Counted from the stretch's first letter, positions 4,413-56,768 are shown. The stretch is DNA of 64,000 nucleotides from an uncultured Phycisphaerales bacterium (GCA_963758525.1 CAVWVQ010000003.1:1472001-1536000); one strand, 5' to 3'. The notes: generated from the sequence alone by a model not told the origin. Made by a program: numbers and translations.

Positions 4413-5819
4413 ATGGCAAGCATCTTCAAACGCGGTCGATGGGTGGACAAACACGGGCGCAAGGTCCGCAAGGGAACTCCCGGCGCGGAGTGGCAGAAAT
4501 CCCGCTACTACACCGTGCAGGTTTTCGTCGACGGCAAGGCAAGGCTCTTCAAGGGATACACTGACAAGGGAGCATCCGAGCAACTGGGCGCGAAGCTAGA
4601 CCGCGACAAGGCCCGTGGGGAGCGAGGGCTGATCGATCCGTACAAGGCGCATCGCAAGCGGCATCTATCGGAGCATGTTGCCGATTGGATTACCGAGCTG
4701 CACCAACTTGGCCGTGATGATATCTACGTTGGATTGTGTGAGGCTCGCATGGCCCGACTGATTGCCGACTGTGGATGGAAAACACTTGCGGGCATCAATC
4801 CCGAAAACTTTATCGCCTGGCGAGAGACGGCGCAAGTAACGGTGGGGACAGCGAAGAAAAAGGGGAGCAACGTCAAGTCAATGGGAGCGCGCACGCAAAA
4901 TCACTATCTGGAAACGGCGCGAGCGTTCTGTCTGTGGGCGATCAAACGCAAGCGCATGGCCAGCAATCCGCTGGCCGATGTGCAAGGTGTCGAAACCGCC
5001 GGGCAGCTGCGCAGAGAACGTCGGGCGCTGCACGATGAAGAGATAACCGCTCTGCTCTCTGCGGTGCATCCGCGACATCAACTCGCCTACCGGATCATTC
5101 TCTCAACCGGCCTGAGGCGGGATGAATTGAAGCAACTGCGATGGGGTGACGTGAAACTCAATGCACCGATGCCCTGTATCGAACTGCGAGCCGAGACGAC
5201 GAAAGCCAAGCGTGCCGACGTGCTGCCCGTGCGGGCCGATCTGGCGGAGCTGCTGAAAGACGCCCGGGGAGAAGCCGGCGACGACGAGCGGGTCTGCCGG
5301 ACGCTGCCGTCGATGGAAACTCACAAGCGTTATCTCATGGCGGCGGGCATCGCCTACGAAGATGAGCAAGGCCGTCGGGTCGATTTCCATTCGCTGCGTC
5401 ACACCTATGGCACTCTGCTGGCCAAAGCGGGCATTGCGCCCCGCGTGGCCATGAGCATGATGCGGCATTCGGATATGAAACTCACGATGAACGTCTACAC
5501 CGATCCGCGTGTGTTTGATATGGCCGGCGCTGTGGAAAAACTGCCCGCACTGGCGGCGCACCAAGTCGTGACAGGGTCGGCAACAGGCACAGATGGACAA
5601 GCCGGGCGCAGCGAAAGCGTCAGTAGTTCATCGGCTGGGTTAGGGATGCGTTCAACAGAAACCGGCCGAGTTGAGTGGAAAGGCGAAACGGCATTAACTC
5701 TTGAAAGTGGCAGAGATAGGCAACAAAAGAGCCCGTCCGGCAGGGACGGGCAAAAAGAGCGGGCGAAGGGAGTTGAACCCTCAACATTCGGCTTGGAAAG
5801 CCGACACTCTGCCAATTGA
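4413..5819 (+). CDS. Tyrosine recombinase/integrase
   Basis: Catalytic motifs TGLRRDEL (R), TKAK (K), HSLRHT (HxxR), MRHS (H) and NVYT (Y). Confidence 0.95.
   Translation: MASIFKRGRWVDKHGRKVRKGTPGAEWQKSRYYTVQVFVDGKARLFKGYTDKGASEQLGAKLDRDKARGERGLIDPYKAHRKRHLSEHVADWITELHQLGRDDIYVGLCEARMARLIADCGWKTLAGINPENFIAWRETAQVTVGTAKKKGSNVKSMGARTQNHYLETARAFCLWAIKRKRMASNPLADVQGVETAGQLRRERRALHDEEITALLSAVHPRHQLAYRIILSTGLRRDELKQLRWGDVKLNAPMPCIELRAETTKAKRADVLPVRADLAELLKDARGEAGDDERVCRTLPSMETHKRYLMAAGIAYEDEQGRRVDFHSLRHTYGTLLAKAGIAPRVAMSMMRHSDMKLTMNVYTDPRVFDMAGAVEKLPALAAHQVVTGSATGTDGQAGRSESVSSSSAGLGMRSTETGRVEWKGETALTLESGRDRQQKSPSGRDGQKERAKGVEPSTFGLESRHSAN
5725..5751 (-). terminator. Intrinsic terminator downstream of tRNA-Gly
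   Basis: Minus strand GCCCGTCC-CTGCC-GGACGGGC followed by TCTTTT. Confidence 0.65.
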
Positions 5820-5830
5820 GTTACGCCCGC
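5758..5830 (-). tRNA. tRNA-Gly (anticodon TCC), no encoded CCA
   Basis: GCGGGCG/CGCCCGC acceptor stem, ACTC/GAGT D stem, TCGGC-TT-TCC-AA-GCCGA anticodon arm, GAGGG-TTCAACT-CCCTT T arm; 73 nt. Confidence 0.95.
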
Positions 5831-37930: not shown

Positions 37931-40288
37931 TTATGCCGCCTGCTTCCCCGCCTCCTGGTCGTACCCTTCGATGCGGCTGAGGTTTTGAATGAGCGAGTCG
38001 ATCTTGGTATTGATCGATTCGCCCCCCTTCCCTGCCTTGATCGCGGATTCCGCGGCGGTGGCTAACTCGGTAATCGATTCAAATCCATAACCGCCGCCGG
38101 CTCCGCGCAACTGATGGACGACGCGCCGCAGGGAGTCCATCTCACCCGCGTCGAGGAACGCCTGCAGCTTCTGGACTTCTCCGGGAAGATCGTGAACAAA
38201 TTCATCGATGATTTTCGCCATTCCAGGTTGATCGGTCAGCGTGCTTTTAATCGTGCCGTCGGGTTCGAGCTTGGGTTGCGGCTTGGGCGGCGGGGCTGCC
38301 GGGGCAGTGCCCTGGCCGAGATGATATTTGACGGTTTGCAAAAGAACCTCCCTTTCGACGGGTTTGGTGAGATAATCGGTGCATCCGCTGGCGATGCATT
38401 TGGCGCGGTCCTCGGACATGGCATACGCAGTCAACGCGATGATTGGCAGTTTGATTTCCCGCCGTCGCAGTTCCCTCGTTGCGGAGTACCCGTCAAGCAC
38501 GGGCATCTGCATGTCCATCAAAACGAGATCAAAAACCTCGGAATCGAAAAGGTCCACGGCGATCTGCCCGTTCTCGGCGATGACGACATCCGCCCCGGCC
38601 ATCTTCAAATGCGTGGACAGTAACCGCTGGTTGTCCCGACCATCCTCGACCAGCAAAATTCGGCCTCGAATCGGGATTTCCCCGGAGTTATGCGCCGAAG
38701 TGACTGCCGGCAGTTTTGCTTCGGTGAGACCCGCCACCATGTCTGAGTCTTTGAGGGGTCCTCCGTCGATCCAAACTCCAAAGTCGCTGCCGGAACCGAG
38801 CGCAGAGCTGACGCTGATGTCCCCGCCCAGCAATCGGGCCAATTTTCGGCTGATCGTCAGGCCAAGGCCCGTCCCCCCGAACTTGCGTGTCGTGGATTGT
38901 TCGCCCTGCGTGAAGGGTTCGAAGATTCTGCCCAACTGCTGAGGATTCATTCCGATGCCGGTGTCGCGCACGTTGATTCGCACCACGCTGGACTCTACGG
39001 TCCGGTCGCAGGAGACGCTCATGTCAACGCCCCCGCTGATCGTGAACTTGATGGCGTTGCCGAGCAGGTTCACCAGGATCTGCCGAAGACGCATGGGGTC
39101 GGTGCAGATGCATTGCGGGATGCTGCCGTCGAACGACAGTTTGAATTTCAATGCACGTTCCGCTGCTCGAGATCGCATGAGCGTCGTTACTTCCGCAAGC
39201 AGTTGGGGAAGCTCGCAGCGAATTCGCTCGATACTCATCTGGCCGGCCTCGATTTTCGAGAGATCGAGAATCTCATTGATCAATTCCAGCAGATGACCGG
39301 CATTGCGACGGATGGTCTGGACGCATTCCGCATGGTCAGGGGCATTAGGGTGATGCCGCAGCATCATGTCCGCGAAGCCGACGATCGCCGTCATGGGAGT
39401 TCGGATCTCGTGGCTCATGTTCGCGAGAAACTCGCTCTTGGCGATGTTGGCGGCTTCGGCGAACTCCTTGGCCTGCTGCAATTGGGCGTCGACCAGTTGG
39501 CGCTCGGTGATGTCCTGGATCATCCCGGTTGCTGCGATCACCTTCCTATTTTCATCGCGGATGATTTCGCCGCGAATGTGGATGAACTGAGCGGCCGCGT
39601 CCGGATTGATAATCCGGCAGTCCTGAGCGATGAGCGTTTGATCGGATGATTCGACGCAGGCATTGATCAATCTCCGGTCATCGGGATGAAGACATTCGAG
39701 AAATTGCTGAAACGTCAGGCCTGCGCCCCCAGCCGCACGGCCCAGAATTCGGCAGGCCTCCTCGGACCAGACCGCGACGTTGGTTGGAACATCCACGTGC
39801 CACGTTCCCAAATGGGCGAACCGCTGGGCATCGGCGAGTTGTCGTTCGCCCTTGTGCAACTCCTTCTCGATCTGTTCGGCGTTGCGCCGCCCCTCCCGAT
39901 CGCGCAATTCGCGCTCCACCGCCGGCACCAACCGCTTCAGATCGCCCTTGAACAAGTAGTCATTGGCGCCCGCCTTCATCGCCTGGACGGCGGTTTCCTC
40001 ACCGACCTCTCCGGAGACGAGAATGAATGGAATGTCCCCCGCTCGTTCGCGCGCCATGGTCAGCGCGGCGGGTCCGCTGAAATACGGCATCGAGTAGTCC
40101 GCAATGATCAGATCCCATGGATGCGCAGCCAGCGCGTCAGTCATCCGCTGCGGAGTGTCCACGCGTTCGTGCGAGATGTCCCATCGCCCGCGCCGAAGTT
40201 CCACGAGCAGGAGAGCCGCGTCGTCTTCGCAGTCTTCCACGATCAGAACGCGCAGTTGGCCGGATGAATTGTCATCGGTGTGATCTAT
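37931..40288 (-). CDS. Hybrid histidine kinase REC-PAS-HisKA-HATPase-REC-Hpt
   Basis: [38 protein letters not shown]; start uncertain (ATA at 40288 after GAGG, or GTG at 40240). Confidence 0.9.
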   Translation of the reverse strand: MDHTDDNSSGQLRVLIVEDCEDDAALLLVELRRGRWDISHERVDTPQRMTDALAAHPWDLIIADYSMPYFSGPAALTMARERAGDIPFILVSGEVGEETAVQAMKAGANDYLFKGDLKRLVPAVERELRDREGRRNAEQIEKELHKGERQLADAQRFAHLGTWHVDVPTNVAVWSEEACRILGRAAGGAGLTFQQFLECLHPDDRRLINACVESSDQTLIAQDCRIINPDAAAQFIHIRGEIIRDENRKVIAATGMIQDITERQLVDAQLQQAKEFAEAANIAKSEFLANMSHEIRTPMTAIVGFADMMLRHHPNAPDHAECVQTIRRNAGHLLELINEILDLSKIEAGQMSIERIRCELPQLLAEVTTLMRSRAAERALKFKLSFDGSIPQCICTDPMRLRQILVNLLGNAIKFTISGGVDMSVSCDRTVESSVVRINVRDTGIGMNPQQLGRIFEPFTQGEQSTTRKFGGTGLGLTISRKLARLLGGDISVSSALGSGSDFGVWIDGGPLKDSDMVAGLTEAKLPAVTSAHNSGEIPIRGRILLVEDGRDNQRLLSTHLKMAGADVVIAENGQIAVDLFDSEVFDLVLMDMQMPVLDGYSATRELRRREIKLPIIALTAYAMSEDRAKCIASGCTDYLTKPVEREVLLQTVKYHLGQGTAPAAPPPKPQPKLEPDGTIKSTLTDQPGMAKIIDEFVHDLPGEVQKLQAFLDAGEMDSLRRVVHQLRGAGGGYGFESITELATAAESAIKAGKGGESINTKIDSLIQNLSRIEGYDQEAGKQAA

Positions 40289-40722
40289 GATGGCGGCACC
40301 TCATTCAGTATGAGCCAATAGATTCCCAATTGCCGAACAGCTTCGGCGAATGCACTGAAGTCCACCGGTTTGCGGATGTAACTGTTGGCGCCCAGGTTGT
40401 AACTCTTGATCAGATCCTGCTCCTCCTTGGAACTGGTCAGCACCACCACTGGCAATCGCCGGGTCCGCTCGTCGGCTCGAAGGTGCCGAAGCACCTCAAG
40501 GCCATCGAGCTTCGGCAGCTTCAAATCAAGGAGCACCAGCCCGGGAAGCCGCGTGATGTCCCGGCCAACGTAGGCTCCGGTTCCGAAGAGGTAATCGATC
40601 GCCTCAACTCCATCGCGCACAACCACCAGTCCGTTCGCGACGTTGTGCTTCTTCAGCGCTCTGACCGTCAGCACTTCGTCATCAGGATTGTCTTCCACAA
40701 GGAGAATCGTCTTATCGAACAT
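40285..40722 (-). CDS. Single-domain response regulator (Rcp1-like)
   Basis: LLVEDNPDD, LLDLKLP, SYNLGANSYIRKP, YWL. Confidence 0.92.
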   Translation of the reverse strand: MFDKTILLVEDNPDDEVLTVRALKKHNVANGLVVVRDGVEAIDYLFGTGAYVGRDITRLPGLVLLDLKLPKLDGLEVLRHLRADERTRRLPVVVLTSSKEEQDLIKSYNLGANSYIRKPVDFSAFAEAVRQLGIYWLILNEVPPS

Positions 40723-40788
40723 GTGGTTTTCCCTTCTGTCGCAATCGCCGTCTAAAACTCAACGCCCGCTGCGTGATCGCCGCATGTT

Positions 40789-42927
<2,139 letters not shown>

Positions 42928-43263
42928 TGCTTCACCTAGCTAATCGACTCTTGGAACGCGAACTGGTCATCGTATCCTTCGCTACTCGCCGCTCGTGAAG
43001 TGCGCGCCCGGTCTTGATCCTGCTCGCCGGGAAGTGCAACACTCTGTACAAGCGATATCGAATCACCGCACCAGCGACTGCATGGGTGCTTCCCCTCAGG
43101 CCGTTTACGTCTCCGTCATACATGCAGATGCGCCGCGGCATGTAAACCTTCAGCAGGTCCCCGGCACAATGGAAGGCCTGCAACGGACTGATCTGTCATC
43201 GATGATTGCACAATCTGTCGATCGACGGATGACGCGCTTTCCGGCACGCCAACCCCGCACCCG

Positions 43264-45978
43264 TTATTTCGCGCGCTCGCATGCGATGAGTTTCACCCTG
43301 TTGTCATCGTACCCTTCGATCCGACGAATCACGCTTATCACAGACGTAATCTCCGCGCCGATGGACTCAAGAGTGCCTGACGCGTCGATGGCTTCTTCTG
43401 CGCTGCTCACCGGCCGGACGAGAGGCGCAAAGCCATATCCGCCGCCGGCGCCCCCGAGCTGGTGGACGACGCGGCGGAGGGCAACCATATCGTTCTGCTG
43501 CAGCAAATCGGTCATTCTTCGAACGTCGTTGGGGAGACCGTCGACGAACTCAGCGATGAGCGACATCATCCCGGGAAAGTCGGCGAGATTGCTCTTGATC
43601 GTCGCGGCCGAGTCCACGATGGCGGTCGCTGCAGGAACTCGCGGGTGTTCTGTCGGCGGACGCTCTTTCAGGTATTTGCCAACGGTCTTCAGGAGGACGT
43701 CCCGGTCAATTGGCTTGCTGAGATAGTCGGTGCATCCGCTGTCCATGCATTTTTTTCGATCCTCGGCCATGGCATGCGCCGTCAGTGCGATGATTGGAGT
43801 CTTTGATCCGCGCTGCCGCAGTTCCGCAGCCGCACTGTACCCGTCCATGACCGGCATCTGCATGTCCATCAGAATCAGGTCAAACGAGCTCTTGGTGACC
43901 AGGTCCATGGCAATCTGCCCGTTATCCGCGACGATCACCTCCGCGCCGCACGCTCGCAGGTGCATGGAGAGCAGGCGCTGATTATCTCGCCCGTCCTCGG
44001 CAAGAAGGATTCGGCCGCGGAGCGGAACGCTCTGCCAGGCAGTGCTTGCCGCAGGTGGTGGTGACAGGACGGCCTCACTTAAATCCGCAAGCATTTCGAC
44101 TCCCGCAAAAGATCCGCCGTCGACGCGAAGCCTGAACGTGCTTCCGACGCCGAGCTCGGACTGGACTTCAATTTCTCCGCCCAACAGATGCGCCAACTGC
44201 CGGCTGATCGTCAGCCCCAGGCCCGTGCCTCCGAATTTTCGGGTGATGGATTCGTCAGCCTGGCTGAAGGGACGGAACAGCCGCGCGAGCTGGTCAGAGG
44301 TCATCCCGATTCCAGTGTCGCTCACCTCGGCGCACAACACATGACCAGGCGGGGGTCCTTCGGCACTGAGCGACAGCGTGATTTTGCCCTCCGAGGTGAA
44401 CTTGATCGCGTTGCCCAGCAGGTTCAGCAGAATTTGCTGCAGCCGCATCGGGTCTGTCAGGATGAACCGCGGGATCGGACTCTTGACGGTGATGACGAAA
44501 TCAAGTCCCTTTTCCACTGTGCGGGGGCGCACGACCGCGACCAGATCCGTCAGTAGTTTGGAGACTTCACAGGGAAGGCTCTCGAGGGCCATCTGGCCTT
44601 GCTCAATCTTGGACAAGTCGAGAATGCCGTTGATCAGTTCCAGCAGGTAAATGCCGTTTCTTCGGATGACCGCGACGCATTCGATGCGGCCCGCCTCGTT
44701 CTGGCCGGGCTGGAGGATCAAGTCTGCAAAGCCCATGATGGCGGTCATCGGCGTGCGAATTTCATGACTCATGTTCGCCAGGAATTCGCTCTTGGCTTTG
44801 TTCGCCGCCTCGGCCTGAGCCTTGGCCTTCTGGAGCTCCTTTTCAACGCGCCGCCGCTCGGTAATGTCTCGAATGTTGCATTGAATGACGTTGTGGCCGC
44901 CTTCGCGATAGACGTTGCTGACGAATTCCACGGGAATGCATTTGCCGTGCTTGTCCTGAAGCGGAAGATGTTCGTAGCGGATGCTGCCGCGCGCCTGCAG
45001 CTCTGCCATCGCGGCCTTGCTGGCGGCGGCGTCGTGGAAAACGCCGATCTCCCAAAGCTCCTTCCCCAGAAAATGCTCGACGGGGTACTGCAGCAGTTCG
45101 AGCATGAAGCGATTGACGTCCAGCACGCGGCCCGTCAGTGCGTCGAGAATAAGGATGCCGTCATGGGCGGCCTCGAACAACCGCCGATAGCGGACCTCTG
45201 AAACTTCCAGTCGCCGGGCGGTGCGCATGCGGTTTGTGACGGCGCGAAACGTGACCACCACACCGAGGATTTTCTCCGTGTCGTCTCGGATCGGCGTTGC
45301 GCTGTCGTCGATGGGGCGATGGCTGCCGTCACGCGCCAGCAGCGTTGTGAGCCCGGCAAGGCCGACAATCGGGCCCTCCCGAATGGCCCGCGCCACCGGC
45401 TCTTCCACCGGTTTGCGCAGGTGCTCGTCAACGATGTTGAACACTTCCCCCAGCGGCATGTTCATCGCCTCCCTCTGCGTCCATCCCGTGAGTTTCTCAG
45501 CGATCGGATTCATGAATGTCACATGCGCCTCGGCATCGGTGACGATCACGGCCTCGCCAACACTGGAGAGCGCCGTTTGAAACCGGAAGCGTTCTTCGAG
45601 GAGCCGGGCATCGGCATTTCGATCGCGGGTGACATCGTCGATGGCAAGCACGACAGCCCCGCTCCTGTTCCCATTGCTCGACAAGCGGCGGGCGCTGAGC
45701 TGCATCGTCCTGGGACCCAGCCGCGGAAAGTCATGCTGCACCTCGAACCCGTCGAATGCTTCGTCTCCCGGAGCCAGATCGTTCAGTCGCTTCAGCAGCG
45801 CGGGGGAATTCCATTGGCCGTTGCCCAGTTCTCCCAATTGACGGCCGATCGTCTCGGCCGGTCCGACATGGAACGCTTTGTAGAAAGCAGGACTGGCATT
45901 GACCACGCGCATGTCCATGTCGAAAACGAGAAGTTTTTCGTTCACGGCGTAGGTGATGTCTTGGTGCGATTCCTGCAT
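43264..45978 (-). CDS. Hybrid histidine kinase PAS x3-HisKA-HATPase-REC-Hpt
   Basis: [33 protein letters not shown] 45978 lies just after the leader terminator. Confidence 0.92.
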
Positions 45979-46012
45979 GGAGGTTCCCTTTGTGACGATC
46001 CCGGCCCTACCG

Positions 46013-46131
46013 AAAAAAAAACCGACGTGATCGACCCGCCATGGCGGGCATTCGATCACGTCGGTTTACTCATCAACGGGCTTCTCGGCCGAGGCCGGGC
46101 CGCCCTTCACTCAGTCTTCCGACGATGAACT
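46013..46131 (-). promoter_or_regulatory. Structured leader RNA with intrinsic terminator (candidate riboswitch/attenuator), copy A
   Basis: TTCATCGTCGGAAGACTGAGTGAAGGGC..GCCCGTTGATGAGTAAACCGACG; terminator CCGACGTGATCGA/TCGATCACGTCGG + 9 T. Confidence 0.75.
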
Positions 46132-46163
46132 ATTTTTTTTCGGGGTCAGTTCTGGATTCATAC

Positions 46164-46192
46164 AGCGTATTCTAAACTGCCGGAAAAGGCAA
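46164..46192 (-). promoter_or_regulatory. Putative sigma70 promoter for leader A
   Basis: TTGCCT-17 nt-TACGCT. Confidence 0.5.
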
Positions 46193-46648
46193 TATTTTAG
46201 TTCTCGCCATTCATAGGGCGTGTGCGAACTTCATCCGGAGACATTGATCGTCCGCGCACGAGATTGCAGATGGCGGGAATACGCCTTGTCTGCCTGACAA
46301 GGGACGACGGTCAACAACTTGCATTCTGAGCGGCGATAATCGGGCCACTGGGGCAATGGCGGTTGCGCGGTCATGTGGGAGGGCTTTGAATCACGATGAC
46401 CAATGCATCCGCCGGCAGCTGCGCCTCGGCCGCGAAATAGCCGCGCCCTCCCAGAGAAAACATTGAGGCGCTGATGGATCGATCGAATGGCTTCATCACG
46501 TGCCGTCGTGAGGCGAACTTCCCGGCGGCGCCCGCGAGTGAACGGTTGTAATGCCGGGCGCTGCGCTCTGACAGTAATATCGAAATACAGCAGCGCCGGC
46601 TGCATAGGTGCTTCCCCCCAGCAGAGATACAGGCTGACGAGCGCTGGG

Positions 46649-47269
46649 TCACACGCGAGCGGAGGCGGAGGCGGCAATCATCTTCATGCGCACAAGGCTC
46701 GCCACATTCACCGCGCGGGTCTTCGCCAGGACATGAGAGCGATGATTCTCAACTGTTTTTACGGCGATCCCCACCCTTGCGGCAATCTGCTTGCTCGACA
46801 GTCCGCCGGCCAGCAGCTCAACGAGCTCATTTTCCCGTTCGGTCAGCGTCAGAAAGCGGTCACGGATCTCTTCTACGATCGCGCGTGCGTCAAGTCGCAT
46901 TGCTTCCAGGCGCAATAGCTCGCGCACCCGGTTTACGAGCATCTGAACGTCAGCGGGCTTCTCGAAGAACTCCACGGCACCCAGTTTTATGCTCTCGACG
47001 ACCGCGGGAATGTCGCCATGTCCACTGAGCATGATCACCGGCATTTGGACATGCTGGGCTCTCAACCATTCAATGAGTTTCATCCCTTGCATCCCGGGCA
47101 TTCGCAAATCCAGGATGAGGCACGCGGTAGCGAGTGAACAGTAATCCAAAATGAAATCTTCAGCAGAGCAATAGGTGGAAACACCTATCCCGGCGGAGCG
47201 AAAGCCGCTTCGCACCGACTCCAAAAGGGCTTTATCGTCATCGACCATGTAAACTGTTGTATCGTTCAT
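46649..47269 (-). CDS. FixJ-like REC-LuxR response regulator
   Basis: VDDD, LDLRMPG, SGHGD, LTERE..KTVENHR. Confidence 0.92.
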   Translation of the reverse strand: MNDTTVYMVDDDKALLESVRSGFRSAGIGVSTYCSAEDFILDYCSLATACLILDLRMPGMQGMKLIEWLRAQHVQMPVIMLSGHGDIPAVVESIKLGAVEFFEKPADVQMLVNRVRELLRLEAMRLDARAIVEEIRDRFLTLTERENELVELLAGGLSSKQIAARVGIAVKTVENHRSHVLAKTRAVNVASLVRMKMIAASASARV

Positions 47270-47474
47270 TCCGCTAATCCCTCCCCCGTCGAATAAGTTT
47301 GAATTGTATGCAGACGTGAACCTATTCTATAATGTATGGAAGTTAAAAGCTCCATAAAAATGATTTTATTTATCGCAACTGCCTTTACATTCATAAGACT
47401 CGGCTGGCTCCCCAGTTGAAGGCGGCGAGAGACGTTGCCGTCGCGACAATTCGTGCCGGCGTGATAATCCGTTG

Positions 47475-47503
47475 TTGAAGCAATGCATTCCTTTTAGTAG
47501 AAT
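47475..47503 (+). promoter_or_regulatory. Putative sigma70 promoter for leader B
   Basis: TTGAAG-17 nt-TAGAAT. Confidence 0.6.
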
Positions 47504-47544
47504 CGTGCTTCGTCAGTTCGTAAGGGTGCCTTGGATCGCCAGCA

Positions 47545-47661
47545 AAATTTTCGTCGGATGGCTAACTGAACGGCATCTCGGCTGCGGCCGGGCGGCCGGT
47601 TTGATAAGTAAGCCGACGCGGACAAACGCCTCAGGGTGTTTTTCCGCGTCGGCTTTTTTTT
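47545..47661 (+). promoter_or_regulatory. Structured leader RNA with intrinsic terminator (candidate riboswitch/attenuator), copy B
   Basis: TCGTCGGATGGCTAACTGAACGGC..GCCGGTTTGATAAGTAAGCCGACG; terminator AGCCGACGCGGA/TCCGCGTCGGCT + T run. Confidence 0.75.
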
Positions 47662-47860
47662 GTCGAAGCGAAACCGTCAGCGCGATGGCTGCAGTCTTGT
47701 TGCGCTGGTCACTCAAAGAGGGAGAGCACTTTCCGACGTTGAAGGAAGCCATCGTGCGGATGAGCGCGTAGACCGCTATAATCTTGCGGTCACATTTTGT
47801 AGACTATGTTTGATTCAATCCGGTGCAGACTCGGGGGAAAGGCGGGCGTCTCTGAAACCA

Positions 47861-50215
47861 ATGACCCATTTCCAAGAAGAGCAGCACATGGGCCGGGGTT
47901 CCATCGTGCCTCTGAAAGCGGTTGGGATGGTGCTGCAGCCAAAGCGTCATTCACGAAAGCGCCAGCGATCGATCAAGCTGACCGCCGGTGACCCTGCGCT
48001 ACTGAAAATCAATCAGGTCCAGCGCGAGCGCGATGAACTGTGCAACCGCCTGCAACTCCAGTTCGAGCGCATGCCCGTTGCGTGCATTATTTCGGACCCG
48101 AAAATGCGCATTATCGACTGGAACCCGGCGGCAGTGCGCATGTTCGGCTATGAGCGCGACGAAGTCCTGGACAAGGACGTGCTGCTGGTCGCCCCCGCCA
48201 GCCGTGCGTTCACGCAGGAGATCAACCACCGCCTCGCGCAGGGAGACATGAGTGCCCATGCGGTTGGTGAAAACGTCACCAAGGATGGTCGCACGATCAT
48301 TTGTGACTGGTGCAACACCCCGCTTCGCAACGCCGCTGGCGAAGTCATCGCCATCCTCGCCATGGCGCAGGATGTCACCGAGCGCCATCTGAGCGAGGAA
48401 AGATTGAAGCGAAGTGAGTCGCTGCTGGCCGACGCGCAGGAGATCGCGCACCTCGGCAGCTGGAGCTGGAACATTCGCAGCGGGCGGCTGACGTGGTCCG
48501 ATGAGCTGTATCGCCTGTTCGGGCTCCAGCGGGGCGCCTCGCCGCCGACGCATGAGGATTTTCTCGCCGCGCTGCATCCGGATGACCGCGCCCGGATGAC
48601 GGAGCTGATAGACGCCGCCTGCCGCGGGACCGCCACCTATGACTGCGAGTTCCGCATTATTCGTTCCGACGGCCAACTTCGCGTGATTTATTCACGCGGG
48701 AAAGTGATCCGCAACAAAGCTGGCGAAGCGACCGAGATGATCGGCACCGGCCAGGACATCACTGAACGCACGGACGGGGAAGTGAAGCTCAGACGGAGCG
48801 AGGCGATGCTCGCTGAAGCCCAGCGCGTTGCCCACCTCGGCAACTGGAGCCGGGACCTTCGCAGCGGGGAATTGATCTGGTCGGACGAATGCTACCGCAT
48901 CTTCGGATTGCGGCCGCAAGAGTTTCCCATGACCTTTGAGTTGTTCCTCGGCCTCCTTCACCCCGAGGACCATGGGCGGGTGCGGACAATCGTCGATCGG
49001 GCCGTGCGTGAGCGTCAATCCTTCGAGTTCCACGCGCGTGTGCCGCTTCCCGATGGAGCGGTGCGGGATGTGTACGTCCGGGGTCTGGTTGCGTCAGACG
49101 AGACCACGGGTCCGGTCCGAACTTTCGGCATCGTTCAAGACCTCACGGAACGCAAGCGAGCCGAAGAAGCGCTGCTGCGGAGCGAGCGGCGGCTGCAACT
49201 GGCCGCCGATTTGGTCGGCCTGTGCCACTACGAGTGGGACATGGCCAAAGGGCAGCCGATCTGGGGTGCGCGTCTGAAACAGATGTGGGGTCTGCCGCCC
49301 GATGGGTATGTCGATCGCGAGATTCTCTTGTCGGCCATCCACCCCGACGACCGCCCCGTCGTCGCGGCGGCACACGAGCGGGCATTCGATCCGAACGGCG
49401 ACGGACAATACGCCGCAGAATACCGTGTCATCGGAATCCAGGACGGCGTGGAGCGATGGATGACGGCGCGCGGCTGTACGTTCTTCGAGAATGGTAAAGC
49501 CGTCGAGTACCTGGGGACCGTCATGGAGATTACCGAGCGCAAACGGCTGGAGAGGGAGATCCTCGAGATCAGCGAGAGGGAGCGGCTGCGGATCGGCCAG
49601 GACCTGCACGACGACCTGTGCCAGCAACTCACCGGCATCGCGTTCACCAGCCGGCTTTTGCAGCAGCGGCTGGCGACGCAGTCGCCGGTTGATGCCGCGG
49701 TTGCGGGGGAAATTATGCAGGCCGTGCAGCACGCAACCGCCCGGGCGCGCGATCTGGCCAGAGGACTTCATCCCGTGCGATTGGAAACTGACGGGCTTGA
49801 CGCGGCGTTGCGCGAGCTCGCCACAAAGATCGAGTCAGTCTTTCGCGTCAGTTGTCGTTTTCGCCACCGTCCGGGTGGCAATACGGCGCCGATCCTGGAC
49901 TCGGCCATCACTATTCAGCTCTACCGCATCGCTCAGGAGGCTGCAACCAACGCGGTCAAGCATGGCGAAGCGAAGCACATCTCCGTCACGTTGGGCACCG
50001 TCAAGGGAAGGATGGAGTTGTCCATTAGCGACGACGGGGTGGGCATTGGAATCGCGCCCAAGTGCCAGGGGATGGGTCTGCAAATCATGCATCAGCGCGC
50101 CTGCGCCATCGGGGCAACGTTGAGCATCACGCGAAGGCGGCAGGGAGGCACTCTCGCGACCTGCTCGCTCGGACACATTTCGCCCGCCCCGACCAACCGG
50201 AGAGTCAAGCGCTGA
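47861..50215 (+). CDS. Cytoplasmic PAS x4 histidine kinase (HisKA_3, NarX-like)
   Basis: Four PAS/PAC units, ERLRIGQDLHDDLCQ, QEAATNAVKH, DDGVG; start uncertain. Confidence 0.9.
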   Translation: MTHFQEEQHMGRGSIVPLKAVGMVLQPKRHSRKRQRSIKLTAGDPALLKINQVQRERDELCNRLQLQFERMPVACIISDPKMRIIDWNPAAVRMFGYERDEVLDKDVLLVAPASRAFTQEINHRLAQGDMSAHAVGENVTKDGRTIICDWCNTPLRNAAGEVIAILAMAQDVTERHLSEERLKRSESLLADAQEIAHLGSWSWNIRSGRLTWSDELYRLFGLQRGASPPTHEDFLAALHPDDRARMTELIDAACRGTATYDCEFRIIRSDGQLRVIYSRGKVIRNKAGEATEMIGTGQDITERTDGEVKLRRSEAMLAEAQRVAHLGNWSRDLRSGELIWSDECYRIFGLRPQEFPMTFELFLGLLHPEDHGRVRTIVDRAVRERQSFEFHARVPLPDGAVRDVYVRGLVASDETTGPVRTFGIVQDLTERKRAEEALLRSERRLQLAADLVGLCHYEWDMAKGQPIWGARLKQMWGLPPDGYVDREILLSAIHPDDRPVVAAAHERAFDPNGDGQYAAEYRVIGIQDGVERWMTARGCTFFENGKAVEYLGTVMEITERKRLEREILEISERERLRIGQDLHDDLCQQLTGIAFTSRLLQQRLATQSPVDAAVAGEIMQAVQHATARARDLARGLHPVRLETDGLDAALRELATKIESVFRVSCRFRHRPGGNTAPILDSAITIQLYRIAQEAATNAVKHGEAKHISVTLGTVKGRMELSISDDGVGIGIAPKCQGMGLQIMHQRACAIGATLSITRRRQGGTLATCSLGHISPAPTNRRVKR

Positions 50216-50223
50216 GAATTGGT

Positions 50224-50887
50224 ATGCACCCAGCGAAGAAAAATGAAAAAACGCGTGTGCTGCTTGTCGACGATCACCCGATGATCCGCCGCGGCCTCTC
50301 CGGGCTGATCAACGAGGAGCCGGACACCATCGTCTGCGGGGAAACCGGCAGCGCCCGGGAGTGCCTCGAATCGATCGCCCTCACGAAGCCAGGCATCGCG
50401 ATCGTTGACATCTCGCTCAAGGACGAGGATGGGCTTGAGCTGATCAAGGAGATCCGCCGCCGCTATCCCCGCCTCTGCGTACTTGTCCTCTCGATGCACG
50501 ACGAAATCGTTTATGCAGAACGCGCCCTGCGCGGGAGCGAGTGGTTACGTGATGAAGGCGGAGGCCGCCGAAAAGGTGAACGCGGCGATCCGAAAGGTGT
50601 TGTCAGGCGGCATCTATATCAGCGAGAGCGTCGCCGACCGGCTGCTGCACCAGATAGGCCCCCACCGTCCCAGCCCGGACTTCTCCATCGAACAACTCAC
50701 TAATCGCGAGCTGCAAATTCTCCGGCTGTTGGGCAACGGTGTGAAAGCGCGGGAAATCGCCGCTCAGCTCTACCTCAGCATCAAGACCATCGAAAGCCAC
50801 CGCCAGAACATCAAACGGAAGCTCGGGCTGAAGAGCAGCGGGGAATTGCTGCGTTACGCGATCCAATTTTCCCGCAAGGATCAGTGA
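50224..50887 (+). CDS. NarL/LuxR response regulator; frameshift near 50533
   Basis: LVDDHPMIRRG, VDISL, LSMH..AERALR + GASGYVMK..LTNRE..KTIESHR. Confidence 0.88.
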
Positions 50888-51087
50888 GAATTCGCGGGGC
50901 GGCGTAGGACGTTTGTCCTACTCCAAAATCATACTCGATGCGGATTGATACGTCTGGACGAGTTTCGATGATTGTCGATGAGGCTGCGTTGACATCTTTG
51001 GGACAGAGAAATCGATACGGACAAGCATGCATCGAACAGTCACAAAGCATTTTTCGATGTAATGGCCCATGCGGAGACAAACATTCG

Positions 51088-51486
51088 ATGAAGACTCAAG
51101 GGGAAATTGAGGCCGCTATTTCGGAAGGAATGAGCCAGTTCGAACGAGAGTACATGGGGCGGGGTCCCCAGGACGTTCGCGCATATCTCATCGACGATTT
51201 GATCGTCGTTCGTCTTGAAGGCGTGTTGACGGCAGCCGAGCAGCATCTGGTCAAGCAACTCGCCGCGCAGAAGGGGCGGACCCTGCTCAAGCAGGTGCGC
51301 AAGCATCTGATCGAGACGGCGCGGCCGAGCATGGAGGCGATGGTGGAGGCGATCGCCGGGGTTAAGGTCGTGAGCCTGCATCACGACATCAGCACCGTCA
51401 CCGGCGAGGAACTCGTGCTCTTCACACTGGCAAAATCACCGTCCCTCCGTGCGACGAACAAACGTCATCGATTGCCGGACGCCTAA
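51088..51486 (+). CDS. DUF2294 (MpsC-like) protein
   Basis: GEIEAAIS..EYMGRGP..GVLTAAEQHL..SLHHDISTVTGE. Confidence 0.88.
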   Translation: MKTQGEIEAAISEGMSQFEREYMGRGPQDVRAYLIDDLIVVRLEGVLTAAEQHLVKQLAAQKGRTLLKQVRKHLIETARPSMEAMVEAIAGVKVVSLHHDISTVTGEELVLFTLAKSPSLRATNKRHRLPDA

Positions 51487-51725
51487 GCACGCCTCAGCAG
51501 CGTTTCAAACATCCCGAATCTAAACGAGCACCAGGCGCCGTCGGGCAGCACATCTGGGTGCTAACCCCCATCTATCCCGTTGACGCTGTGGACGATCAAT
51601 ACAGGCGGCACGACCGATCCATCTTCTTCAGCGTGAAGCGCGGGATCAACGGCTCGAACCAGCCGCGGGTTGTTGGCGATCGGTTCAGCGATGCCATACC
51701 TGAAGCGTCGTTATCGGGAGATGCG

Positions 51726-53814
51726 ATGAAGCGTAGCTTGACGAAATGGGCCTTTACCGTTGGCGCGTTCTCGGCACCCGTCGCACTCTTCGCCCAACCG
51801 CCGGCCCCGCCCCCGGCGATCACCCAGCCATCGACTGCAGTCTTGCAGTCTCCCGGCGCGCCGTCTCCATCGACGCAACCTGCAACGCGCCCCGCGATCA
51901 CGGAACACGTTCAAAATGGACGCACGAATCTCTCGCACCCCGGCAGCAACGAACTGGCGGATCTCAGCTTGGACGACCTGATGAACGTGGAAGTGACCAG
52001 CGTCTCCAAACAACCTCAGAGAATCGCAGATGCACCGGCCAGCGTCACGGTGATCGGGCAGAACGATATTCAGCGATCGGGGCTCAACAGCATTCCTGAA
52101 CTGCTGCGCCTCGCTCCGGGGATGGACGTTGCGCGGGTCAATGCCAACACATGGGCGATCTCCGCGCGCGGGTTCAACAACGAGCTGGCCGACGACCAGC
52201 TCGTGCTGATGGACGGCCGGTCCATCTACACGCCTGCATTCGGCGGCGTGTTTTGGAACACGATCGACTATCCGCTGGACGACCTGGATCGAATCGAAGT
52301 CATTCGTGGGCCGGGGGCGACGCTATGGGGTTCCAACGCCGTCAACGGTGTCGTGAACATCATCACCAAGCCGGCGGACCGCACCCAGGGATATTCGCTG
52401 CAGTCCCGCATCGGCACCGACGAATCAGATGCCTCGGCACGGTACGGCGGGCAGATCGATGATCTCACGTTCTTTCGCGTCTATGCCAAATACGGATATA
52501 CCGGTTCGCAAACCGCTGTCGACGGCGACCCCGGCCACGACCAATATTCGACGCTGCATAGCGGCTTCCGCATCGACCGCTACACCTCGCCCACCGACAC
52601 CCTGACGCTCCAGGGTGATGTCAATGAACAGCAAATCCAGGACACCTACCTGGGAATTCTCGGCGGCGATTCGCAGGGAGACTCTTACGGCCACGGCGGA
52701 AACATCCTGGCGCGGTGGACGCACACTCCCTCAGAACAGGAAAGCACGTCGCTGCAGATGTATTACACTCGCCAGGATGAGATTCTGACGCCTTCGGGAT
52801 TTAACGAAGCAGACTACAGCCTGGAGTTCCAAAACCGTTTTCCCCTCGGCGACCGGCAGGAGATCACCTGGGGGACGGGCGCGAGGGAAAGCCAGATCAG
52901 TTGGGATGCGGTAGCGCCGGCAGACTTCGAGCCGAAATCGCGCTCGCTCTATTTAATCAACGGCTTCATCCAGGATCAGGTGAGCCTCGTCCCCGACCGG
53001 CTTCAATGGTCGGTGGGAACCAAGTTGGAATACAACAACCTGACGCAATTCGAGTTTGATCCGAGCGTGCGGCTCGCATGGACTCCGGACAAACAAAATA
53101 CGGTTTGGGGGGCCATATCGCGTTCGACCCGTATTCCCTCCCTTTATCAGGATTCTCGAGATACCTTCGGCATCCTCACTATCAATCCGGAAAATCCGTC
53201 TTCGGAAAAGACGATCTCCTATGAGTTGGGCTACAAGGTGCAGCCGAGCAAAACCGTTACCCTGGATGCGACGGGATTCTTCAACACCTACGACGGGCTC
53301 ATTCTGGCCGTCCCGTCGGCAGCATCGCCGCTGCGGGAATCCTGGACCAACGCCGCAACCGCGGAGCGCCGGCGCCGAATTGGCGGCAAGCTGGCAGGCC
53401 ACGCCGCAGTGGAAGCTGGCGGGGAGTTATTCGCTTCTGAAAGTCACTGCCGAAAGGGCAACTGCGCGTATCCCAAATTCTGCGATCGAGACGATCGAGG
53501 GCAATAGTCCTGAAAATCAATTCCAGATCCACTCGTATTACGACCTGACCCGATCGCTGCAACTCAATGGATCCGCCTATTACACGCAGGGCCTGCCCAG
53601 AATCAAGGGCGACGCGTTCAGAAGTCAGAACGTTGGGTCATACGTTCGGTTGGATCTCGGAATGACCTGGAAACCGCGGGACAACGTGTCGTTCTCCGTC
53701 GGCGTGCAAAATCTGCTGCAAAATCGCCACGCGGAAAGTGGAAACCTGGGCATCAGCTTGGTTCCCAGCGAGGTGCCGCGCTCGGCATACGCGCAATTCC
53801 AATTGACATTCTGA
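51726..53814 (+). CDS. TonB-dependent receptor; frameshift near 53365
   Basis: LSLDDLMNVEVTSVSK, ISARGFN, RIEVIRGPGATLWGSNAVNGVVNIITK; C-terminal QNLL..FQLTF. Confidence 0.9.
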
Positions 53815-53869
53815 TCGCACGGAGCCAGCGCGGTCGGATCGGCAGCCTCAATTTTCGGCGGGATGCAGA

Positions 53870-54415
53870 GTGAGTAAGTCCAAAGCGAACATGATCGCAG
53901 TCCGTTGGGTTTTCGTGTTCGCGGCGATCGTTGCGCCGCGCCCGGCCCATGCACTTCCTGAACCGGAGATCAAGGCGGCATTCATTTACCGCTTCACACA
54001 ATTTGTGACATGGCCGGATGATGCGTTCGCCGGAAGCGACGCGCCCTTCGTCATCGCGACGGCTGGCGATGATTCATTGTCGGCATCGCTCAAGCGTGTC
54101 ATGGCCGGGAGGGTCGTGAACGGTCATCCGATCGTCGTGACTCATTTTGCCTCGGTCGATCGGATCGACCATTGCCATGTCCTGTTTGTGCCGGCGTCCC
54201 AACAGGGCACGGTGCCCGCCATTCTCGCCAAGGTTGGGAGCGCGCCGGTGCTGACCGTCGGCGACGGCGATGCCTTCATGAGCCAGGGCGGCGCGATTCG
54301 ACTGTTTGTGGAAGACGGCCGGATGCGGTTCGAGCTGAACCCCGACGTCGTGACAGCAGCGCGGCTGAAGCCCGGCGCGCAGCTGATGAAAGTCGGGCGG
54401 GTTTATCAGAAATGA
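53870..54415 (+). CDS. YfiR (DUF4154) family periplasmic protein
   Basis: IKAAFIYRFTQFVTWP, CHVLF, VLTVGD, RFELN. Confidence 0.88.
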   Translation: MSKSKANMIAVRWVFVFAAIVAPRPAHALPEPEIKAAFIYRFTQFVTWPDDAFAGSDAPFVIATAGDDSLSASLKRVMAGRVVNGHPIVVTHFASVDRIDHCHVLFVPASQQGTVPAILAKVGSAPVLTVGDGDAFMSQGGAIRLFVEDGRMRFELNPDVVTAARLKPGAQLMKVGRVYQK

Positions 54416-54421
54416 TTGTAT

Positions 54422-56768
54422 ATGTTGATGCTGCGTACGCTGAAATCGAAATTATTTGCCATGTCGGTCGTTTCCACCGGCGCCGCCCTTGTGGCGGTTT
54501 GCGGCCTGCTGGGGTGGTACGACTATCACACGTTCCGCAAAGCGATGGTCACGCAAGCCCAGACCATCGCGCATCTCGTGGCCCACAACAGCATCGCCGC
54601 CCTCTCCTTCGCGGATAGCAATGATGCCGCTCAAACTTTGGCGTCGTTGCGCAGCGAGCCCCATATCGTGGCAGCCTGCGTTTACGACCACACGGGAAAA
54701 AGTCTCGCGTCGTATTTTCGCGACGATCCCGTGCCGTTGCCGAGTCCCGGCGAACTGGCTCCGGGCACGTCCCAATTCAAAGAAGACCGGCTGGAAGTCA
54801 CCTGCCCGATTCAGCTCACCGGCGAGGAACTCGGCTCTGCCTACATCAGAATGGACCTGGGCGCTCTTCACGAGCGGACGAACCGATACGTGATGGTGTT
54901 CGGCAGCGCGATTCTTGCGGCGATGGCGGTCGCATTGGGGTTCACCACCCGGCTCAGCCGCTACATCATCGGCCCGATCGAGCACCTCAGCCGGACGGCC
55001 ACCGACGTCTGGACGAACCAGAATTATTCGGTGCGCGCGATGAAGACCACCAGCGATGAGCTGGGCGCGCTGGTCGACTGCTTCAATATCATGCTGAATC
55101 AGATCCAGGAGCGCGACCATCAGCTCACGCAGCATCGCGAACACCTGGAGGATCTGGTGGCGGTGCGCACCACGGAATTATCCAATGCCCGCGACAAGGC
55201 CGAGGAGGCCAGCCGCGCCAAGAGCAATTTTCTGGCAAACATGAGCCACGAGATCCGCACCCCCATGACCGCGATCCTGGGATACGCCGATCTCATGCTG
55301 TCGCCGGTGCAGACAATGTCGGACCGGATCAACTCTCTCCAGGTGGTTCGGCGGAACGCGCGGCATTTGATGGAGCTGATCAACGACATCCTCGACATCA
55401 GCAAGATTGAAGCCGGGAAGATGACCGTGGAGGCTATCGCCTGCGACCCCGCCCGGGTCGCGATGGAAGTCGCTTCGATGCTCCGGCCGCGAGCCATCGC
55501 CAAATCCCTTCCCCTCTCCGTGGAATTCGTGGGAGACATTCCCGCGGAGGTCAACACCGACCCGCTGCGGCTCAAGCAAATCCTCATGAACCTCACGGGC
55601 AATGCCATCAAATTCACTGAGCGGGGGAACATCTGTGTCAGGCTGTCCGTTGAAAAGCGGGCGGACGCAAGCCGGGTGCGGTTCGACATCATCGATTCGG
55701 GAATCGGCATGTCGCCGGACCAGGTGGGACGTCTCTTTCAACCCTTCGTGCAGGCCGATGATTCGATGACTCGCAAGTATGGCGGCACCGGCCTGGGATT
55801 GGCGATCAGCAAGCGGCTTGCGAAATTCATGGGCGGGGACATCTCCGTTTGCTCCGAGCCGGGACATGGGAGCACGTTCAGCTTCTGGCTCGACGGCGGA
55901 CCGCTGCACAACGTCCCGATGCGGCAAGGGCTCACGGAATCGATGCTCGCGATCAGTCCTGATACTTCCGAAATCGAGCAGATCGTGCTGCGCGGGAAAA
56001 TCCTGCTGGCGGAAGATGGAATCGACAACCAGCAATTGCTGACGCTGCACCTGGTCACGGCCGGAGCGGTGGTGGTCATTGCCGAGAACGGGCGTGTTGC
56101 AGTCCAGCGGGTGTGCGGGGAGCCGTTTGATCTGGTGTTGATGGACATGCAGATGCCCGAACTGGACGGATACGGAGCGACCAGCGAATTGCGGCGGCTG
56201 GGATTCACGCTGCCGATCGTCGCACTGACCGCCCATGCCATGGGCGGCGACCGGGCACGGTGTATCGAGGCGGGATGCACGGACTACCTGACCAAACCGA
56301 TCGACAATGAGCTGTTGCTCCGCACGGTGGCCAGCTATCTCAAGCCGATCGTCATGCCGTCGCAACCGCCGCCATTGCCGGCACCAGTTGGAAGACTCGC
56401 GCGAGCTTGAGCCGCCAGCGGCCTCGCCCGCACGGCAGAACGCTCACTCGAAGGACCGCGCCGGCGAGGCGATGCGCCGCGCGGTCGAGGGATTTGTCGG
56501 ACGTCTTCCCGGTCGAGTCAACGAACTTGACAGTCTCTGCACGGGGCATGAGTTGGGGAAACTCGGCCGGCTGATTCACCAGCTCAAAGGTGCTGGCACC
56601 GGCTACGGGTTCCCGGCGATCACCCAGACTGCCGCCAGAATCGAATCAGTCGTGAAGAGCGACGCGGAATTCGATGCGGTTCGTGCCGCCGTGGATGAAC
56701 TGATTGCATTAATCCGGCGGACGGCCGGCTACGACCCGGCCAGAGAGCGACAAACCCGCCATGCCTGA
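54422..56768 (+). CDS. Membrane hybrid kinase CHASE8-like-HAMP-HisKA-HATPase-REC-Hpt; frameshift near 56385
   Basis: [31 protein letters not shown]; Hpt HQLKGAGTGYG in the shifted frame. Confidence 0.88.

Follow-up and report, generated by a model that had tools for sequence, protein, structure and literature searches.

An uncatalogued family of leader RNAs, in which a rod-shaped element and an intrinsic terminator exclude one another, is tied to genes for DUF2294/MpsC proteins across bacterial lineages. Judging from sequence patterns and predicted folds, DUF2294 is probably an RNA-binding antiterminator with this RNA as its site, the canonical type 2 form of the protein binding the core loop, protecting the basal helix P1 and giving read-through into the gene behind. 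Two copies lie in the window, the 64,000-nucleotide stretch of DNA from an uncultured Phycisphaerales bacterium analyzed here, where a sequence-only reading had described an unrecognized riboswitch or attenuator motif in front of divergent PAS kinase genes. The regulatory class proposed there stands in its general form, as a terminator/antiterminator leader absent from current catalogs, and now leans toward the protein-dependent side because DUF2294/MpsC genes accompany the RNA in different lineages.

Two leaders with overlapping terminators

Both copies lie where the sequence-only reading had placed them, copy A at 46013-46131 on the minus strand and copy B at 47545-47661 on the plus strand, and their likeness is far above chance: the local alignment of A with B scores 114, as against a mean of 38 and a maximum of 62 in 2000 shuffles. 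Each copy contains a rod of about 65 nt closed at its base by helix P1, and a long intrinsic terminator begins with the 3′ strand of that helix. The rods alone fold more stably than shuffled sequences (z of −4.4 for A and −2.9 for B), and that of copy A scores 68.7 bits with covariance model R1. Several features are present as first described: the swap of GGGC/GCCC for CGGC/GCCG in one stem; the terminator stems of both copies, with U-runs of 9 T in A and 8 T in B; and a 5′ GTCGG that can pair with CCGAC at the start of the terminator. Whole-leader folding predicts that the terminator form is favored over the P1-closed form by 6.3 kcal/mol in A and 8.9 kcal/mol in B, and that P1 forms in transcripts ending ahead of the terminator’s 3′ strand. 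A 5′ leader element that is mutually exclusive with an intrinsic terminator is a general feature of protein-dependent antitermination.

Table 1 Leader elements and neighboring genes in the window
Feature	Positions	Strand	Details
Hybrid histidine kinase, behind leader A	43264..45978	-	PAS-PAS-HisKA-HATPase-REC-Hpt, 904 aa; start 34 nt past U-run
Copy A intrinsic terminator	46013..46064	-	9-U run; first 5 nt are the P1 3′ strand
Copy A rod	46060..46123	-	P1 (5 bp), conserved 3×3 internal loop, P2, purine-rich loop, P2b, P3, tandem A·G, P4, variable terminal loop
Possible sigma70-type promoter, leader A	46164..46192	-	17-bp spacing, weak; uncalled by consensus scan; promoter pattern seen family-wide
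FixJ/LuxR-type response regulator (REC-GerE)	46649..47269	-	Between copies A and B; Pfam
Sigma70-type promoter, leader B	47475..47503	+	9/12 consensus, 17-bp spacer
Copy B rod	47553..47617	+	Architecture as copy A; 66.6 bits with model R1
Copy B intrinsic terminator	47612..47661	+	8-U run; overlaps P1 3′ strand
Multi-PAS HisKA_3 kinase, behind leader B	47861..50215	+	784 aa from this ATG; frame open from 47636
NarL-type response regulator (REC + GerE)	50224..50887	+	Frameshift near 50530; both halves match Pfam
Perfect 7-4-7 inverted repeat	50904..50921	.	170 nt upstream of the DUF2294 gene; sequence
DUF2294/MpsC gene, canonical type 2	51088..51486	+	132 aa; PF10057 E 4e-37; proposed RNA-binding antiterminator

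A sigma70-like promoter with 17-bp spacing had been proposed upstream of each copy. A promoter consensus scan, which returned 2 sites where 1.0 ± 0.9 are expected by chance, called the promoter of leader B and left that of leader A uncalled; the simple terminator rule of the same scan missed both long terminators. A perfect TATAAT occurs near 47779 (+), between terminator B and the kinase start, and a second promoter at this point could bypass leader B.

A kinase gene does follow each copy, and the distance from the U-run grows from 34 nt behind A to about 200 nt behind B. The divergent arrangement is looser than first described: the copies do not flank a single shared promoter region, and a FixJ/LuxR-type regulator gene intervenes. 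Nor are the copies confined to the pair originally noticed, as model R1 finds 4 in the source genome, two of them outside the window. The type 2 DUF2294 gene of the window lies 3.4 kb behind copy B. The frameshifted NarL-type regulator gene that precedes it may be a pseudogene or may reflect a (long-read) sequencing error. The inverted repeat in front of the DUF2294 gene is a possible response-regulator site by its sequence, resembling NarL/DosR-type boxes; it is not seen upstream of other type 2 DUF2294 genes among the upstream regions displayed. The whole neighborhood, 37931-56410, is a dense two-component cluster with at least five histidine kinases (PAS, CHASE3, CHASE8, and Hpt hybrids), several receivers, and a TonB-plug protein.

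An unbranched rod with a nearly invariant core

The rod is unbranched, contains several A·G oppositions, and has neither a junction nor a pseudoknot. Its most conserved part is the 3×3 internal loop between P1 and P2, with the core consensus GG-NN-GAY / R-UA-RR-CC, whose nucleotides hardly vary from one lineage to another. Among planctomycete copies, each of the 10 base pairs in the distal helices has double changes, a level reached by 0 of 500 shuffles; P1 and P2 are largely fixed by the search pattern in this test, and such columns are uninformative on covariation because the pattern fixed them. The register is kept in a cross-lineage alignment of 32 sequences, which contains 68 cells with double changes (0/500 shuffles) and 9 covarying pairs, a count that 24 of 500 shuffles reach and to which the descriptor contributes by partly imposing two pairs. 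Both P1 and P2b change in covarying fashion across lineages.

The succession of the words GGA..UGAA..UGA..CCGAC had made a c-di-GMP-II-like or kink-turn RNA the starting guess, which we rejected. A kink-turn has conserved tandem sheared G·A / A·G pairs after a 3-nt bulge; here the would-be tandem G·A is kept in only 23 and the A·G in only 41 of 86 model-found copies, and the columns in question pair in a symmetric helix (U-R in 78 of the 86 with 4 further C-G, R-Y in 83, and A-U in 73). The c-di-GMP-II class is defined by the pseudoknot P4, which runs from the P3 loop to the 3′ joining strand and forms a pocket with P1 and P2 (PMC13715770). Our RNA shares with it similar short words and the layout of a transcriptional switch, but has no P4, no three-helix junction, and no pseudoknot-forming loop, the terminal loop being variable in length and sequence and free of long-range covariation. 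The model RF01786 and its variants have no match on the leader region at E ≤ 10, and the 4 weak RF01786 matches genome-wide include none of the 4 copies. A variant of this riboswitch, or another kink-turn RNA, would account for the superficial word order and for the signaling genes downstream; we give it hardly any credence. A CsrA/RsmA site, a conserved GGA in a loop, was also considered and rejected: only 16 of the 32 sequences in the cross-lineage set have GGA, and both of its G residues take part in P1 pairing.

The description of the motif as unrecognized has held. Searched at gathering thresholds, the whole window matches no Rfam family besides a tRNA (gene at 5758-5830, minus strand); the leader region yields three irrelevant sub-threshold matches and nothing else, and none of 20 homologous DUF2294-linked loci matches. 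Among the open-access papers listed by literature searches, none ties DUF2294/MpsC/YbcI to RNA or describes the motif, and a term search of bioRxiv 10.64898/2026.09.08.750065 gave no occurrences; a prior description may exist, for instance in the supplements of PMC11109978 and PMC5737381, which tabulate uncatalogued motifs.

A multi-copy leader family in Planctomycetota

Pattern and covariance-model scans uncovered hundreds of homologs in 5′ leaders, as the sequence-only reading had anticipated for a genuine class. The pattern scan gave 127 GTDB loci from 26 of the 64 parts of the collection, from which about 300 are estimated overall; because the first patterns fixed the UGAA/UGA words, these scans undercounted the family. 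Planctomycetota titles stand on 120 of the 127 loci. Planctomycete-type copies also appear in records titled delta proteobacterium (L064), proteobacterium (L126), Alcaligenaceae (L155), and Victivallales (L081), which may reflect transfer, binning error, or loose labels. One GTDB match (L079) was dropped as a chance match, and alignment A1 excludes two copies that carry long insertions. Model R1, trained on 130 near-all-planctomycete copies, finds the RNA in 48 of 141 genomes of the family, with up to 14 matches per genome, and gives strong matches in 5 of 151 genomes of the phylum. The distribution is patchy, multi-copy, and island-like, often with divergent pairs as in the window. Viral contigs gave 6 pattern matches, and none of the 5 distinct ones has a rod or terminator.

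The leader architecture recurs through most of the set. The overlapping terminator is present in 120 of 130 distinct homologs, and of 129 complete leaders folded, 124 take the terminator form. Upstream of the copies TATAAT and TTGCTT are about tenfold enriched (27 and 25 versus 2.6 each), and an open reading frame with a ribosome-binding site and ATG begins at most 120 nt downstream in 78 of 127 copies; the corresponding count for random positions is 56 of 561. In about one-quarter of copies (for example L049, L054, L056, and L070) an optional hairpin, GGAGCC ... GGCTCC, stands between promoter and rod. The fourth copy in the source genome, L167 (G000:C5:280896-280964, minus strand), has no clear terminator and is possibly a degenerate or rearranged leader.

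The RNA travels with DUF2294/MpsC genes

The protein linked to the RNA matches only PF10057 (MpsC/DUF2294) in Pfam. Across the 141 family genomes, which as kin are not independent, 41 carry both the RNA and the protein (one of these, G062, is an unpublished genome), 7 the RNA only, 1 the protein only, and 92 neither; at genus level, the RNA occurs in 27 of 76 genera and the protein in 24, with 23 having both. The seven RNA-only genomes, in which no DUF2294 was detected, are drafts of 69-95% completeness. Joint transfer on one island could also produce such co-occurrence.

Two types of DUF2294 gene are found, type 1 lying under the RNA and type 2 being the canonical form. At 62 copies with enough flank, type 1 is the first gene in 12 cases, and a type 2 gene within 1.2 kb is upstream and divergent in 16, downstream on the opposite strand in 2, and downstream on the same strand in 0. 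Since type 2 is never found on the same strand downstream within this distance, its placement fits a trans regulator. Type 2 also occurs upstream on the same strand, as at the third copy in the source genome. Among held-out planctomycete DUF2294 loci, model R2 matches 13 of 29, 10 of them at E ≤ 0.01, and because some of the matched loci precede PEPCK, SbtA, or DUF4914, single-copy and multi-copy forms both exist within the phylum.

Outside Planctomycetota, co-occurrence rests on loci picked by the protein. When R1 was run on five loci, the top rank went to a site beginning at the DUF2294 stop codon of Acetoanaerobium noterae (E 0.012), where P1 carries a compensatory change and a terminator overlaps the element. 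A further 83 loci were picked by protein alone, 80 metagenomic and three from a plasmid collection; 74 have enough flank and 9 have less than 150 nt downstream. A descriptor of core plus terminator matches within −40 to +250 nt of the DUF2294 stop at 28 of the 83 (about 20 distinct) and at 0 in antisense, and 10 of 12 descriptor matches elsewhere are planctomycete-type copies on the other strand. The remaining 55 loci have no descriptor match in the tested stretch, with about 8 showing a looser core by eye. A genome-wide R2 contrast of 20 DUF2294-positive with 20 negative genomes (4 versus 1 with matches) is not significant. P1 overlaps the terminator in Planctomycetota and Bacillota alike, even though the sequence itself has turned over.

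A small domain fused to receivers

Over 53 type 2 proteins R25, K68, and R71 are invariant and R/K31, R42, and R79 nearly so. Five planctomycete type 1 proteins compared with them have lost K68, R71, R42, and R79, and have mostly lost R25 and R31. Type 2 is not net basic, with a mean charge of −1, which speaks against the RNA-binding antiterminator reading. A receiver domain is present in 69 of 120 longer DUF2294 homologs, in every case on the N-terminal side of DUF2294, and 66 of these 69 keep the Asp and Lys-Pro motifs; fusions with PAS and kinase domains also occur, and a few fusions look like read-through artifacts. By analogy this architecture looks like that of a signaling output domain. 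In a quick tree, with 10 of 76 rows left out, the receiver-fused domains group with the window’s protein (SH-aLRT 99), a grouping that is biased because the fusions were collected using that protein as query. In a sample of 401 genomes two have a receiver-DUF2294 fusion, and both of them also have the RNA; no receiver-fused copy was found in the source genome.

The predicted fold of type 2 is a confident α-β-β-α-α-β-β domain (pLDDT 90), for which sequence searches yield no solved relative. Foldseek with the type 1 model gives no match at E ≤ 0.001, an Atlas search none outside PF10057, and NCBIfam holds no model for either type. A VIA structural search with the type 2 model reveals no clear relative, its best hit being FtsK (Z 6.9); KH-II candidates are weak and tied with unrelated rows (RbfA, Z 5.9, rmsd 3.8 over 88 aligned residues; KhpB, Z 5.1, rmsd 3.4 over 79). 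These fold searches show neither a new fold nor RNA binding.

The same family includes MpsC of the Staphylococcus aureus mpsABC locus and YbcI, and DUF2294 adjoins bicarbonate transporters in Bacillota. According to the available portion of PMC6689103, the S. aureus mpsC deletion grows normally in air although mpsAB is needed, mpsA falls in 5% CO2, and mpsC has no assigned function and no RNA partner described there. Because the deletion has no phenotype in that portion of the source, an obligatory-activator role does not fit S. aureus (PMC6689103), and neither R1 nor R2 finds a site before mpsA on a staphylococcal plasmid.

Targets change while the RNA core and partner gene stay

In the multi-copy form the commonest first gene is DUF2294/MpsC itself, at 24 of 126 heuristic first open reading frames and at 16 of 83 in a partly overlapping set; 20 further second-pick frames contain no DUF2294. 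The other named targets are CsbD, YflT, transglycosylase-associated, BON/OsmY, Hsp20, GroEL, ferritin, DUF892, DksA, CsrA, KaiC, ice-binding, and kinase genes, so named stress, dormancy, and signaling functions make up this set. No carboxylase or bicarbonate transporter is named among the 126 and 83 first genes, many of which have no Pfam match. Cross-lineage single copies lie in front of genes for PEP carboxylase, PEPCK, PurE, PurC, SbtA, DUF4914, a monocarboxylate MFS protein, and DedA, with bicarbonate transporters among them. Targets thus differ completely between lineages, and the RNA core and the partner gene stay. A position before PAS kinase genes, as first noted, holds for both window copies; PAS kinases are only a minority of the family’s targets, and the kinase link is therefore local and not a family theme.

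A proposed mechanism

We propose that the rod folds first and that the terminator then displaces P1, which would leave the leader OFF by default, since the terminator is predicted to be favored over the P1-closed form by the energies given above. Type 2 DUF2294, encoded in the window and again beside the third copy elsewhere, would bind the core through its invariant Arg/Lys residues and block this displacement, allowing RNA polymerase to read into the kinase genes. The leaders would then likely be ON switches held open by DUF2294/MpsC bound at the conserved internal loop. With less support, the signal in single-copy systems is likely CO2 or bicarbonate, the multi-copy planctomycete form may have been rewired to stress and phosphorelay input, and the type 1 paralog, RNA-controlled and without the basic residues, may serve as a feedback damper. 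As the source genome has no receiver fusion, control there may run, as a guess in either case, via the amount of type 2 or via the type 1 damper; the former is perhaps set through the NarL-type regulator and the inverted repeat before the type 2 gene.

The most far-reaching version of this proposal seems to us possible and rather doubtful. Under it, DUF2294/MpsC would form a new class of antiterminators that act by binding RNA and would also be a new type of output domain for response regulators, with a single-copy form that senses CO2/bicarbonate and opens carboxylase and bicarbonate-transporter operons. The Planctomycetota form would be an amplified one, a post-initiation master switch of a general stress/dormancy regulon that receives phosphorelay input, acts on as many as 14 or more leaders in one genome, and is kept in check by an RNA-binding-dead paralog of its own. 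If the antiterminator proposal is true, a widespread domain of unknown function gains a function as a new antiterminator family with its own RNA site, carboxylase and bicarbonate-uptake tuning in heterotrophic and anaerobic bacteria becomes directly testable, and control of a planctomycete stress regulon comes into view.

Alternative explanations

The internal loop might instead bind a small ligand or ion, such as bicarbonate or a carboxylation-related metabolite, as a protein-free riboswitch to which DUF2294 is merely a linked neighbor. Overlap of P1 with a terminator is the usual layout of an ON riboswitch, the single-copy targets from PEP carboxylase to the monocarboxylate MFS protein are of one theme, and near-invariance of the core suits this reading too. 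We nevertheless regard it as unlikely, given an unbranched rod with no junction or pseudoknot, a type 2 gene that is usually upstream of or divergent from the RNA and not under its control, receiver fusions that mark the protein as a signaling output, and multi-copy first genes among which, many having no Pfam match, neither a carboxylase nor a bicarbonate transporter is named. Were the RNA protein-independent, it would be a new riboswitch class with an inorganic-carbon theme, and equally interesting.

Protein dependence could also take another form, with DUF2294 promoting termination or sequestering another factor, such as CsrA or an ANTAR protein, that is the actual antiterminator. A repressor would fit the S. 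aureus observations, namely the normal growth of the mpsC deletion and the fall of mpsA in 5% CO2 in the available part of PMC6689103, and CsrA genes are among the targets while one ANTAR gene exists in the source genome. These variants appear improbable: what is conserved is the rod, the competitor of the terminator, and a protein bound to it should favor read-through; the GGA expected by CsrA is paired and present in only half of the cross-lineage copies; and the ANTAR gene is 2 Mb away, with no dual hexaloop hairpins in the RNA. More improbable again is a stand-alone small RNA or a mobile repeat of promoter, rod, and terminator that spreads in gene islands and leaves the next gene unregulated. 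The clustering on islands, the patchy spread (5 strong of 151 phylum genomes), and the unusual conservation of the terminator sequence itself in planctomycetes would suit such an element, but same-strand genes follow closely, single copies sit between DUF2294 and metabolic genes, and the P1/terminator overlap has outlasted sequence turnover from Planctomycetota to Bacillota.

Comparison with known antiterminators

The known families of RNA-binding antiterminators are few, among them CAT, ANTAR, and HutP, and the RAT elements of the CAT-domain antiterminators BglG, SacY, and LicT are hairpins with internal loops. Compared with RAT, our RNA has no Rfam match and is twice as long, and its system has no PRD domains and different targets; no CAT domain (PF03123) is found in the source genome (91% complete), whereas 4 control genomes match. 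The likeness is a hairpin that overlaps a terminator with default OFF and a regulator gene that adjoins the site; the CAT-domain antiterminators are tabulated in PMC12591593. ANTAR proteins (AmiR, NasR, EutV) resemble DUF2294 in being small C-terminal output domains fused to receiver, PAS, or kinase domains, with RNA sites overlapping intrinsic terminators and multi-site regulons (PMC12591593). Their site as given there is a pair of hexaloop hairpins (A1, G4), unlike the one long irregular rod with a variable loop seen here (PMC12591593). DUF2294 is a predicted α/β domain without an ANTAR match, its RNA binding is putative, and no ANTAR protein (PF03861) is linked to the RNA in the source genome; the shared receiver/sensor architecture is an analogy and not membership. 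HutP of Bacillus subtilis, in the accessible part of PMC12591593, is a small stand-alone α/β protein whose gene lies immediately before the hutP-hutH terminator that is under its control, as at single-copy DUF2294 loci; it binds single-stranded RNA in the terminator region, whereas the conserved element here is the competing rod (PMC12591593). DUF2294 has no sequence or fold match to HutP, and Pfam names only MpsC. By analogy, then, the RNA probably works like the sites of ANTAR, BglG, or HutP antitermination without their defining features.

Variant leaders at other DUF2294 loci

Several DUF2294 loci carry related arrangements. At L266, L270, and L291 a different, longer conserved leader with a terminator lies just past the DUF2294 stop, before purC in two of them. 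At L272, L305, L308, and L311 two tandem terminator-ending units with a variant core follow DUF2294, and in L305 they precede an ABC transporter permease gene. An Anoxybacillus locus (L231:8746-9001) has a second structured leader with a terminator upstream of its DUF2294 gene, so that terminators stand on both sides. Degenerate DUF2294 paralogs are found behind the RNA outside the multi-copy clade as well (L283:707-1057 and L329:2085-2414), which suggests that the layout of type 2, RNA, and type 1 is old or has arisen more than once.
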